From a virus (Duplodnaviria; Caudoviricetes), in IMG/VR virus record IMGVR_UViG_2757320919_000001, positions 1-64,000 of that record: a stretch of DNA of 64,000 nt, one strand, 5' to 3'. The notes beneath the pieces were generated by a model, which was given only the letters and a program-made list of their open reading frames with translations, did no database searches and had not been told where the DNA came from. Within the stretch, counting starts at the first letter, position 1, and each line of letters begins with the position of its first letter. Positions 840-22,556 of this stretch are shown here, in pieces. Made by a program: the position numbers and the translations under genes.

Positions 840-1737
840 GCATGAATTATTCCATTGGCTGTAACAGTATTGGTAGCAAATGGTAATTCATATCTACTCC
901 ATGTACAATTAGTTACATTTCTACCTGTTATATTTGTATGAGCACCATTATAACATAATAATAAATTTGCTGCTTTTGAACCTGTAAAATTAGGATATTG
1001 TAGATTCATATAAGAATTGTTATTATTTAATATATTAGCAGCAGATTTATTATTTGTAATTGATGAATTAGTTAATGTCATTTTAGAACCATATCCACAA
1101 TAATATAACCATCCATTACAGTTTTCACTACCATTATTATCTAATTTTAAATCAAATCCCGTTAATTCACCTTGATCATTACAATATAATAATGATTGCT
1201 CTTGTGTTCCATCTAAATTGTTACCATTGTTGGTAAAGCTATATTTGGATATAGCAATTTTAGAAGCTAATGATAAAACTGCATTTTTATAACAATTTTT
1301 AATACCATATTTGTATGCATTAGATGTTGAAGGAACCATAGTAACAGAACTTTCTCTAAAATACCATCCTTTTGCTTTAGTTCCTACAGCATTAATCATA
1401 ATTTTAATATTAGGTGCTTTGCAACCATAAAACATAAAGATATACTTTTCGGCATCAAAATTATTAAGCAATATTTCATCATCTTCTGATAATATATTTA
1501 TATGATTTGCTAATGCATTTCTTAAGATAATTTGTTCGTTTAATTTATATCCTGATTTTAATATAATATTTATGTTGCAATTATTTTTAACTGAAATATA
1601 TTCGAGTGCTTTTGCTAAAGCATCTGATAATTTGGAGAACCCCCCCCCCTTCCTACTGTATAAGTTTTGCTCTCTGTTAATATTTTAACACTACCATCAA
1701 TTATTTCTTTTATATTTGAATTTCCATAATTTATCAT
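836..1737 (-). CDS. Phase-variable receptor-binding protein (second RBP), phase-OFF in this sequence
   Basis: ATG at 1737 reads MINYGNSNIKEIIDGSVKILTESKTYTVGR into a G10 tract and then stops. G11 or G8 restores FSKLSDALAKALEY... through to ORF 836..1471 (300 aa with G11). Confidence 0.85.
1640..1649 (-). repeat. Poly-G (G10) hypermutable tract
   Basis: C10 on the + strand at the frameshift point. Confidence 0.95.
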
Positions 1738-16608: not shown

Positions 16609-17025
16609 TTACTCCTTCAACAAATCTTCGTTTTCATAAATGTTACCAACTACTTCAAAAGTATTTAAATACTCACATTTATCAATGTCAAATTCGCCAC
16701 ATAAAGTTTCATGAAAATCATATACATATTTCCATTTACCTTTAAGTGCAACAAATTTATTTTCACTATCACGCCAATCTATTATTACTAATTCTTCATA
16801 ATTTGGTGCTTTAACTTTTACAATATCACCTTCATAAACTTTTTTTCCATTAATATCTTTATAATTTGTGCATAAATTAATAATAGTATTTTCATCAAAT
16901 TCTGATAATCTTGTTTTTGCTTCATCACCATAAATGAATTTTGTTTGATGACATTTACATAATTTATCACTACATCCAACAAATTTTTCATCATATATTC
17001 TAAAAATAAAGTTTTTAAGTTTCAT
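16609..17025 (-). CDS. YopX-family protein
   Basis: FRIYD...KDINGKKVYEGDIV...EVVGNIYEN. Confidence 0.8.
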   Translation of the reverse strand: MKLKNFIFRIYDEKFVGCSDKLCKCHQTKFIYGDEAKTRLSEFDENTIINLCTNYKDINGKKVYEGDIVKVKAPNYEELVIIDWRDSENKFVALKGKWKYVYDFHETLCGEFDIDKCEYLNTFEVVGNIYENEDLLKE

Positions 17026-17360
17026 GTTGTTTCCTTATTATCAACTATCCAATCTATCCACTCTTTCATAATAGAATCAACATATCCATCACTTGTACTA
17101 CAACTCCAAGTGTGGTTAGTATCTATTCCAAAATATATTTCATTATCTTTTTGACCTTCAAACTCTTTATCACCTAATTTTCTATTCTGTATCCAAGTTA
17201 TAGCACCATCATTAGATAATGTATGGTTATCATACCAATAAAGTCCCAGATCTTTAAATAAATTTTCATCTATTAGCAAATATCCACATCTCCATGATTT
17301 ATTAGGTAAAACAACATATCTAAAACCTTTGTATTCTCTGAAATCAACTTTTACTTTCAT
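17022..17360 (-). CDS. Hypothetical protein
   Basis: 112 aa with WRCGY...GAITW...FGIDTNH motifs seen in small phage proteins. Confidence 0.65.
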   Translation of the reverse strand: MKVKVDFREYKGFRYVVLPNKSWRCGYLLIDENLFKDLGLYWYDNHTLSNDGAITWIQNRKLGDKEFEGQKDNEIYFGIDTNHTWSCSTSDGYVDSIMKEWIDWIVDNKETT

Positions 17361-17778
17361 TTGTTTCCTCCAATAAATCTTTAATCACATTAATATTTCC
17401 AACAATTTCCATATATTTGCTTGATGGTATGGATTTGAAAAAACTTATATCTGCATTTTTCTTATATTTGTAAAGTTGCCCTTTAATATTTTTTCGATAT
17501 ATTGCTATTTCAAGAATATTATAAACAATATCATTTCTTGTAATAAGATAAAATTCTTCAAATTCTTTATTTTCTAAAATATCACCTTCATAAATCTTTT
17601 TGCCATTTTTGTCATAAAATCCTGTAAATAATTCTATTTCATAATCTATAGTAGGTTTTTCATAGGTTAATTGATTAAATACGCTAGTTATAAAACCCAA
17701 CGACTCTATTATACTTCCTGCTTCATATGTTTTAGAATTATTATTCCAAACCCTAAAATCAAAATCTTTTAATTTCAT
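17344..17778 (-). CDS. YopX-family protein
   Basis: FRVWN...FTGFYDKNGKKIYEGDIL...EIVGNI. Confidence 0.85.
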   Translation of the reverse strand: MKLKDFDFRVWNNNSKTYEAGSIIESLGFITSVFNQLTYEKPTIDYEIELFTGFYDKNGKKIYEGDILENKEFEEFYLITRNDIVYNILEIAIYRKNIKGQLYKYKKNADISFFKSIPSSKYMEIVGNINVIKDLLEETNESKS

Positions 17779-18155
17779 TCTTCATCCTTTAACAAATTCA
17801 TATTTTCGTGGATATTACCAGAAAGCCACATTTCTTTTATTTTCTTATTTTTATCATCCATAAAATGTTCAAAATACCACCCACAACATCCATCAGATAA
17901 CCTTGAATAAAGTCCGTCTTTTATATCAAAACAAACAATTTCATAAATCAATTCTTCATGTGCTTCATCCTCCATATATTCTTCAACCCATGTTAAGTGT
18001 TCTAAAATATCTCCAGCATATATTTTATTTCCATTTTCATCAATATATCCAGTAAAAAGTTCTACATCACCATCAATAGGATTTTCATTGTAGTAAAATT
18101 TTTTGTTTTTATCGTCCCATACTCTATAATTAAGTTTCATTTTCTTTCCTTTCAA
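17775..18155 (-). CDS. YopX-family protein
   Basis: YRVWD...FTGYIDENGNKIYAGDIL...GNIHEN. Probable start at the second Met. Confidence 0.8.
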   Translation of the reverse strand: MKGKKMKLNYRVWDDKNKKFYYNENPIDGDVELFTGYIDENGNKIYAGDILEHLTWVEEYMEDEAHEELIYEIVCFDIKDGLYSRLSDGCCGWYFEHFMDDKNKKIKEMWLSGNIHENMNLLKDEE

Positions 18156-21470: not shown

Positions 21471-21857
21471 TCATCTTTCTCCATTTTCCTTTCCTGTATC
21501 CATATCAAGTTCAAAACTGAATAATGTTGATTTAAATGACCCAAGTTCTTTTAAAAATTCCTTTTCAGCTTTTTTATCAGGAATATTATCTCCAAACGAT
21601 TGACAATGAATTATCTTATATTCTAAACAGTCTATTAAATCATTTATAATACTCATATAGTCTTTAATTGTAAAATCATCAGTATGAGCTAATGAGTTTA
21701 AACCTTGTATTGCATTCATTTTAATGCTTAATTTGCTATGTTCTTCTCTAAGCTCTGATATTTTTTTATCTACAATTGATCTAATTCCAAGATTTGTGGG
21801 ACGACTACCACATTCTAATAAAGCATCAATTTCTTCTTGACTTAAAATCATTGCCAT
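21471..21857 (-). CDS. Protein with FliM-type CheY-binding N-terminal peptide
   Basis: MAMILSQEEIDALL followed by a predicted helical region; AAGGAG RBS. Confidence 0.75.
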   Translation of the reverse strand: MAMILSQEEIDALLECGSRPTNLGIRSIVDKKISELREEHSKLSIKMNAIQGLNSLAHTDDFTIKDYMSIINDLIDCLEYKIIHCQSFGDNIPDKKAEKEFLKELGSFKSTLFSFELDMDTGKENGER

Positions 21858-21939
21858 AATTATACTCCTTTATAAAATATTTAATTATTATCCTCTAAAT
21901 TTTTTGCTCCGATATCACATTCATCTAAAAGTTATCAAA

Positions 21940-22329
21940 TTATTCATCTGTCATCATATTTGAGTGAAACAACATAACTTCTTTAGAATTGATGTATTTA
22001 ATGAGTTGTATATTATTATTTTTATTATAATATTCACATTCTTTTGATTTTAAAATATCTAGCAATTCTTTTTCAACTTCTGATATTTTTTTAATTTTAC
22101 CTATAACTCCATATTTACTGAGGTATTCATCAAGTTTTGAAGGAGATGCAATACTTAAATTATAAGAAAACATTCTTATAGTTCCACATTTAGGACATTC
22201 CGCAATAATCCACCTTAAGCCATTTTCTTCCAACTTTAAATACAAAACATTATCTTTAAATGATTTTTTAAACTCTCCAAAACTATAACTTTCACAGTTA
22301 CAAAAATACTTTTTATAAAAATTAAACAT
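21940..22329 (-). CDS. Hypothetical Zn-binding protein
   Basis: CNC and CPKC motifs; GAGGAG RBS. Confidence 0.6.
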   Translation of the reverse strand: MFNFYKKYFCNCESYSFGEFKKSFKDNVLYLKLEENGLRWIIAECPKCGTIRMFSYNLSIASPSKLDEYLSKYGVIGKIKKISEVEKELLDILKSKECEYYNKNNNIQLIKYINSKEVMLFHSNMMTDE

Positions 22330-22340
22330 AATAACTCCTC

Positions 22341-22556
22341 TTAATTTTCTCTTATCTCTCGTCCTATACTATAAACACCTATAAATAGTATTACAATAAG
22401 TAATGATAGTATAATATGAGGAAAGTATGTAACTAATATAGATAGTAATATTATAACTAATATAGATAGTAATATTATACCACCGATTACAAGTACTCCA
22501 GTACAAAAGTTTTTAATATGTTCTAACATCTTAATCCCTTGTTTTATATTTTTCAT
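22341..22556 (-). CDS. Small two-TM membrane protein
   Basis: Long hydrophobic stretches. Confidence 0.6.
   Translation of the reverse strand: MKNIKQGIKMLEHIKNFCTGVLVIGGIILLSILVIILLSILVTYFPHIILSLLIVILFIGVYSIGREIREN

Follow-up and report, generated by a model that had tools for sequence, protein, structure and literature searches.

Does a Campylobacter phage carry a free-standing copy of the peptide with which the flagellar switch protein FliM docks phosphorylated CheY (CheY-P), and what would such a copy do in the infected cell? The question is raised by a 128-aa open reading frame (ORF) within a 64,000-nt stretch of viral DNA (hereafter, the window), which covers positions 1 to 64,000 of the IMG/VR virus record IMGVR_UViG_2757320919_000001. 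The complete record is 134,927 bp long, and the phage is a Fletchervirus, one of the CP81-like phages of Campylobacter. Among named phages, its closest relatives are Fletchervirus phages that infect Campylobacter jejuni and C. coli. CC12667_12682_P3 shares 97.2% identity with the window over 3 kb, and CP81, CPX, CP30A, and the F3xx phages share 90-96%.

The ORF joins a short FliM-like peptide to a phage-specific helical domain. A preliminary description of this DNA had reported a 128-aa ORF with a strong ribosome-binding site, the product of which carries the motif LSQxEIDxLL at its extreme N-terminus, followed by a helical region. Both parts are borne out, the first by the sequence upstream of the start codon and the second by the translation and an AlphaFold2 model; we add the strand, which is minus. 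The features of the locus are as follows:

21471..21857, minus strand: the whole ORF, 128 aa plus stop, a member of family phrog_8774 (ORF list, profile match).
21865..21870, minus strand: ribosome-binding site AAGGAG, 7 nt 5' of the ATG (sequence).
21813..21857, minus strand: codons 1-15, MAMILSQEEIDALLE, a copy of the host FliM N-terminal (EIDAL) docking peptide, with a model helix at 7-15 (alignment, hhalign, model).
21795..21812, minus strand: codons 16-21 (CGSRPT), poorly conserved and without secondary structure in the model, between the peptide and the helical domain.
21483..21794, minus strand: codons 22-125, three long helices specific to the phage family, without a recognizable fold or family (model, Pfam, fold searches).

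The product of 21471..21857 begins MAMILSQEEIDALLECGSRP. Upstream of it, AAGGAG is unchanged across seven aligned phage sequences. Within the joint, P20 is invariant in an eight-sequence alignment but not in the 11-sequence set described below.

The ORF sits within a long series of small minus-strand genes, most of which have no known function. Nearby genes encode a DNA methyltransferase, a head-closure protein, an RNA ligase, and a polynucleotide-kinase-like protein. A promoter and terminator scan found no terminators, and promoter-like sites were not enriched (30, against 23.4 in shuffled sequences, sd 5.7). Four small genes on the minus strand at 16609-18155 are tandem paralogues, as judged by eye; the ORFs at 16609-17025 and 17344-17778 both match phrog_98, the function of which is unknown. 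Related phage records annotate a "YopX protein" inside the 3-kb segment 20500-23500, outside of which these paralogues lie. Closer to our ORF, a hydrophobic 71-aa ORF at 22341-22556 (minus strand) contains an internal direct duplication (…GGIILLSILVIILLSILV…) and matches phrog_16795 in two stretches.

The first 15 residues of the phage protein closely match the start of the host's own FliM. A Campylobacter 16S primer scan reached two host genomes, one of C. jejuni (G001) and one of C. coli (G002), and in both of them FliM starts with MAEILSQEEIDALLEVVDD. Aligning the phage protein with the host N-terminus, a comparison already suggested in the preliminary description, shows that 14 of the 15 residues of the C. 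jejuni FliM start (MAEILSQEEIDALLE) are identical to those of the phage; against both C. jejuni and C. coli FliM, the identical residues are 1-2 and 4-15. Comparison of the family profile with FliM using hhalign aligned columns 1-26 with columns 1-26 and nothing else (probability 92.6%, E 4.6e-7). BLASTP likewise aligned the N-termini alone, with a score of 29.6 bits, which is not significant by itself in a comparison of one proteome with another. The argument for mimicry is thus based on position, exactness, and conservation rather than on the BLAST score.

The motif occurs once per genome in host and phage. A degenerate DNA pattern encoding LS[QK][DE]EID[A/D/E-class]LL has one match in each of the two host genomes, both at the start of fliM, and one in the 134,927-bp phage genome, at the 128-aa ORF; the reversed pattern, used as a control, has none. 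By a rough estimate, an exact 12-mer shared between the phage proteome (~45,000 aa) and the host proteome (~500,000 aa) would be expected ~3e-4 times, and one with both copies at residue 4 far less often. When the first 21 residues were searched against 177,635 PDB sequences, the sole match was 4iga_B, the N-terminal peptide of Thermotoga maritima FliM crystallized with CheY; its E value (0.88) is weak because the query is short. The view expressed in the preliminary description, that chance is an unlikely source of the match, is therefore strengthened by position, exactness, the single copy per host genome, and the conservation described below.

The phage carries the version of the peptide found in its own host lineage. 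MA[DE]ILSQEEIDALL is present in 25 of the 29 Campylobacteraceae FliM N-termini compared, and the phage match is specific to the host's own version, MA-x-ILSQEEIDALLE. The preliminary description had attributed the motif to FliM and, in some taxa, to FliY. In C. jejuni, the attribution holds for FliM but not for FliY: FliY (MINDFLKMF...) and FliN (MSDDIEFN...) lack the motif, so that FliM alone has it among the three. C. jejuni FliY differs in this from the FliY of Bacillus subtilis and T. maritima. The host CheY is typical, with 130 aa and a best PDB match to Helicobacter pylori CheY1 (3gwg, E 1.6e-64).

The N-terminus is the most conserved part of the phage family. We aligned 11 full-length homologues from five clades, leaving out P0001 (which starts at the second Met), the fragments P0005-P0008, P0016, and P0018, the fusion P0014, and the repetitive P0017. 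The preliminary description had staked its reading on the conservation of the motif among homologues, and conserved it is: M1, A2, I4, L5, S6, E9, I10, D11, L13, and L14 are invariant, and Q7 is altered in one member only (to M in P0015, where the motif reads ILSMDEIDDLL). Positions 8 (E, K, or D) and 12 (A, E, K, or D) are variable, and these are the x positions of LSQxEIDxLL. Identity between clades is 80.9% over residues 1-15 and 33.1% over the remainder, and no other 15-column window of the family alignment is as conserved as the N-terminus. In the helical domain, L, F, Y, T, and K positions are among the invariant ones, and the best of its 15-column windows reaches 57% identity between clades.

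The codons of the motif differ synonymously between clades, so selection acts on the peptide, and the likeness does not reflect recent DNA transfer. For Ser, the codon families differ, with AGT in the phages and TCC in host fliM, and the Leu codons differ too. These codon differences, together with a likeness that stops after about residue 15, led us to reject the idea that fliM DNA was recently captured from the host.

The family was found in Campylobacter phages only. Homologues of phrog_8774 occur in 40 records, all of them from these phages. Identity is 70-94% within Fletchervirus (52% for the low-quality record PH123), 46% for phage QDYZ, 45% for the 35-kb phage DA10, and 39-42% for Firehammervirus (CP220, CP21, IBB_35, and WX1). 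A search of 185,579 species genomes, one per species, gave 183 pattern matches, none of which was confirmed as a cellular homologue. Among 1.84 billion representative proteins, a profile search found ten at E<=1e-3. Nine are family members or fragments, and the tenth, P0017, is a repetitive 887-aa protein with a weak partial match (E 8.4e-05). The Firehammervirus phage CPt10 carries two paralogues, one Fletchervirus-like (63812-64184, 78% identical, with a broken frame) and one CP220-like (locus L015, 3001-3366; MAHILSQEEIDELL); the tblastn table indicates the same for CP20. In P0014 (230 aa), the helical domain lies behind an unrelated N-terminal domain of ~120 aa, without an EIDAL motif, and it is therefore an independent module.

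The predicted structure separates the peptide from the rest of the protein. The AlphaFold2 model, built from eight family members, has a mean pLDDT of 71.8 and a pTM of 0.35. It contains a short helix at residues 7-15 and long helices at 22-58, 64-84, and 95-125, with residues 16-21 unstructured. The phrog_8774 profile covers the protein from end to end (residues 1-128 on positions 1-128 of 128, E 1.6e-70), and Pfam gave no match to it even at E<=10. For the helical domain, Foldseek against the PDB returned nothing at E<=0.001, the ESM Atlas gave no usable match, and the best hits of a wide fold search with VIA (Z 7.9) were generic helical hairpins, below the level that is meaningful for helical models. 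A PDB sequence search with the whole protein gave one weak coiled-coil-like match, to the arm of a seryl-tRNA synthetase (E 0.0016), which we take as a reflection of helical composition.

No part of the FliM body accompanies the peptide. FliM has a CheC-like middle domain (PF02154) and a SpoA domain (FliMN_C, PF01052). PF02154 has no match in the protein or in the whole phage genome, although the same search recovered FliM in four control genomes and in C. jejuni and C. coli. SpoA has no Pfam match in the protein, and the model is all-helical. The phage protein therefore cannot enter the C ring the way FliM does. Domain searches found no FliM, SpoA, or REC domain in the phage genome as a whole, so the partner of the peptide must be a host protein; a phage-encoded REC-domain partner was looked for, and none was found.

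The frame is not intact in every relative. It is split into two pieces in 16 of the 40 Campylobacter-phage records, and in the four split records that we aligned, every break falls at a homopolymer run. Two of these runs lie in the window as follows:

21761..21767, minus strand: A7 run (T7 on the plus strand); CPX and PC5 have one base fewer here, and their frame is broken by it (alignment).
21798..21800, minus strand: C3 run (G3 on the plus strand), C4 in F352, which breaks the frame after the motif (alignment).

PT14_12670_16 has a shortened A7 run too; the annotation of this record is fragmentary, and tblastn reads the gene there as a single piece. The break in CPt10 consists of one extra A at another A run. 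F352, CPX, and CPt10 differ by a single base at the break, and PC5 differs at further sites as well. A poly-G phase-variable tract was considered and is absent, the breaks being at A6/7, at C3/4, and at another A run. The breaks may be sequencing errors or real on/off variation. If they are real, only a peptide of ~33-45 residues containing the motif would be made, and the full-length protein would be dispensable. In CP81, CPX, and PT14_12670_16, the first ATG is replaced by ATA, so the protein would start MILSQ.

RNA-library contigs from four runs of one study cover the intact ORF with no differences or indels; such libraries may include DNA, and the contigs reveal neither strand, level, nor timing. 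In two of the runs (X1 record 5 and X4 record 30), contigs span from about 21414/21426 to 22508, a stretch made up of the 128-aa ORF, the upstream gene at 21940-22329, and part of 22341-22556. This hints, weakly, at a common transcript, with all runs coming from one study.

We consider it fairly probable that the 128-aa protein acts as a soluble FliM N-terminus decoy and captures CheY-P, and the phage thereby probably interferes with the swimming of the infected cell. The FliM N-terminus contains LSQXEIDALL, is intrinsically disordered, and binds CheY-P (PMC6700473; PMC6946799), which agrees with the identification of the motif in the preliminary description. The likeness of the phage protein to this segment (FliM_N) extends to the same sequence, the same extreme N-terminal position, and the same short helix in the prediction. 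We favor CheY-P because it is the best-documented partner, because the family retains the residues of the published consensus, and because the free position 12 is tolerated in a CheY complex. The T. maritima peptide on CheY (4iga) has Q where the phage has A12, and position 12 is thus tolerant for CheY binding. The Escherichia coli FliM N-terminal segment has likewise been solved on CheY (1F4V). Counting against the decoy reading are the split frames, the motif-less P0014, and the altered motif of P0015.

The proposed mechanism is one of competition. The product would be a small cytoplasmic protein with two modules, the FliM N-terminus copy and the three-helix domain, held together by a short unstructured joint. 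The EIDAL peptide is disordered alone and becomes helical on the alpha4-beta5-alpha5 face of phosphorylated CheY. Once made in the infected cell, the protein would compete for CheY-P with FliM subunits in the C ring. The occupancy of the motor by CheY-P would then fall, leading to fewer motor reversals and to swimming that is uncoupled from chemotaxis. The helical domain may multimerize the decoy, raising its avidity, or may add a second activity. The phage could benefit from altered behavior of infected cells, or from a change in how further phages adsorb by way of flagella; motile flagella are reported to be needed by several of its relatives.

CheY-P is not the only published partner of the motif. 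FlhG, which the preliminary description had left out, is a second one (10.1101/2022.04.21.489128), and the sequence by itself therefore cannot name the partner. We think it possible, if unlikely, that the peptide captures the MinD-like ATPase FlhG, either alone or alongside CheY. In other polar flagellates, the EIDAL motif of FliM or FliY is bound by FlhG. This ATPase restricts flagellar number in C. jejuni and keeps division away from the poles, and inhibition of host division is a common phage tactic. On this less likely reading, a soluble decoy would draw FlhG off the pole and alter the division or flagellation of the infected cell. In Shewanella putrefaciens, the EIDAL motif of FliM is reported to be necessary and sufficient for the interaction with FlhG, and FliM N-terminal mutations change flagellar number in both B. 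subtilis and S. putrefaciens (10.1101/2022.04.21.489128). The C ring of C. jejuni is needed for polar localization of FlhG, for control of flagellar number, and for placement of the division site (PMC6946799). In carrier-state C. jejuni with the related phage CP30A, the flagella are truncated and FlhF carries the change T368A (PMC6282759), which lies on the FlhF/FlhG axis.

Other observations speak against FlhG as the partner. Size-exclusion chromatography showed no direct interaction between FliM and FlhG in Vibrio alginolyticus (10.1101/2022.04.21.489128). A stable association between FlhG and the C ring was not detected in C. jejuni, according to the available text of that study (PMC6946799), and the available text of the carrier-state study names neither FliM nor any phage protein in the context of the flagella and FlhF (PMC6282759). 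Furthermore, position 12 is A in 29 of 29 Campylobacteraceae FliM, yet it is free in the phage family. This pattern fits a tolerant partner such as CheY in 4iga.

The two-module layout also allows an adaptor, a reading that we regard as quite unlikely. Here, the peptide would only dock the protein on CheY-P or on another host REC domain (CheV or the CheA receiver), and the helical domain would act on the target. Two known proteins have such a layout. FliY of B. subtilis and T. maritima combines an EIDAL peptide with a CheC-like phosphatase and a FliN domain, and CheZ combines a helical bundle with a CheY-docking peptide; in each, a CheY-P phosphatase is tethered through the docking peptide. 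The phage protein, in its model, has the same arrangement of docking peptide, short unstructured stretch, and separate folded module. Its helical domain is itself conserved and, as seen in P0014, a module of its own. Among the actions imaginable for it, each with little probability, are faster dephosphorylation, as with CheZ and FliY, and recruitment of the target to a phage or host factor. Against this, the protein has no Pfam match to CheC, CheX, or CheZ and, unlike FliY and CheZ, no conserved catalytic motif or fold match. The CheC/CheX/FliY-type active-site motif [DS]xxxExxN is absent in ten of the 11 family members and occurs in P0011 at non-conserved positions only; DxxxQ, the CheZ motif on a helical hairpin bundle, occurs in two of the 11, at different places. 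The fold matches are no better than generic helical hairpins.

That the peptide is an ordinary capped amphipathic helix belonging to the protein's own fold or to some other function, with a merely coincidental likeness to FliM, is very improbable: [FL][ST]Q[DE]EIDALL-like stretches do occur inside phage proteins that resemble (by eye) lysozymes, ParB-type proteins, and integrases (14 of 25 IMG/VR loci), and the BLAST score is below significance across whole proteomes, but the match is exact at 14 of 15 positions, N-terminal in both proteins, of the host's own version, and single-copy in each host genome searched, an unstructured stretch parts the peptide from the helical domain in the model, the peptide is far better conserved than the remainder of the protein, and translated strict LSQ[DE]EIDALL lies within five residues of the start codon in eight of ten IMG/VR loci. 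With [FL][ST]QEEIDALL stretches present in the interior of unrelated phage proteins, the 8-mer is not diagnostic by itself.

N-terminal FliM-like peptides are also found in other viral contigs. Four start-codon-anchored scans of IMG/VR gave 103 loci, among which 23 distinct cases have the strict N-terminal pattern M-x(0-6)-LSQxEIDxLL. Six of these belong to the Campylobacter-phage family, three are true FliM (L258, L293, and L316), and two are internal to longer frames. Another six are small ORFs of 114-168 aa without a Pfam match (L243, L261, L263, L284, L260, and L323). The other six comprise the 43-aa L319, the HTH-like L244 and L329, the large unknown L253 and L268, and L313, which is terminase-like by eye. 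The small ORFs, together with one look-alike, are as follows:

L243, 1001-1342, plus strand: small ORF, start MADILSQDEIDRLL.
L261, 613-1041, minus strand: small ORF, start MADILSQEEIDRLL.
L263, 538-1041, minus strand: small ORF, start MASILSQSEIDALL.
L284, 655-1044, minus strand: small ORF, start MSDGSLSQDEIDALL.
L260, 649-1044, minus strand: small ORF, start MSDGTLSQKEIDQLL.
L346, 1501-1842, plus strand: small ORF, start MADILSQDEINALL, EINAL variant.
L323 (= L334), 1001-1456, plus strand: 152-aa Cys-rich ORF, start MRDILSQDEIDALLNG, in contig G047.

The first six of these lines (L243, L261, L263, L284, L260, and L346) describe ORFs of 113-168 aa in IMG/VR viral contigs of 94-290 kb. Past the peptide, among L243, L261, L263, L284, L260, and L323, only L260 and L284 resemble each other, and remotely. 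A search of IMG/VR for relatives of L261 and L243 returned their own contigs and, in addition, only the N-terminal look-alike L346. The contig of L323 is classified as a provirus, and about 200 bp downstream of L323 it has an open frame of 294 aa that encodes a FliM middle domain. L323 may therefore be a host gene, and it may represent a split or unusual host FliM rather than a phage gene.

True FliM homologues are also present in these viral records. A short one is listed here:

L316, 1001-1675, plus strand: 225-aa FliM-like ORF, PF02154 E 8.5e-15, in a contig of 305,833 bp.

In contigs classed as viral, L258 (334 aa) and L293 (341 aa) are FliM-like ORFs of full length. All three are either host flanks or phage-borne genes.

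The recurrence of small ORFs with an N-terminal motif and no Pfam match in other IMG/VR contigs leads us to a tentative broader suggestion. Large phages of flagellated bacteria might repeatedly and convergently have copied the FliM peptide onto small unrelated proteins, as a tactic for seizing CheY-P or FlhG. In Campylobacter, such a protein could possibly be the unrecognized phage factor behind the links between infection and motility, namely infection that depends on motility and carrier-state cultures that move poorly. We hold this suggestion to be rather less than an even prospect.

A viral copy of this peptide would be new. In the literature searched (mostly outside subscription journals), we found no description of a phage-encoded FliM_N mimic or of a CheY-binding phage protein. 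The motif and its partners are already known; what is new is the free-standing viral copy. Viruses of eukaryotes are well known for mimicking short linear motifs, and we know of few cases described for phages. A partial parallel is PfsE of Pf phage, which inhibits type IV pili and thus prevents superinfection (PMC8764522). PfsE is likewise a small protein that a phage directs against the motility apparatus of its host, and it too may serve to control further infection. It differs in organelle and mechanism, since here a copied host docking peptide would be aimed at a signalling or regulatory protein.

Motility and chemotaxis decide the colonization of the gut by food-borne Campylobacter, and the phages of this genus are under development for biocontrol. 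If our reading is true, the 128-aa protein would be a naturally occurring, gene-encoded inhibitor of either FlhG or the final step in chemotaxis signalling. A direct test is feasible, given cultured phages, a tractable host, a peptide of 15 residues, and two well-studied candidate partners in CheY and FlhG. The protein could also help to explain the repeated links between infection and motility in Campylobacter phages. Phage F341 is flagellotropic (PMC10877375), NCTC 12673 is reported to be less efficient on non-motile strains (PMC8540345), and motility is impaired in carrier-state cultures (PMC6282759, PMC4534711).
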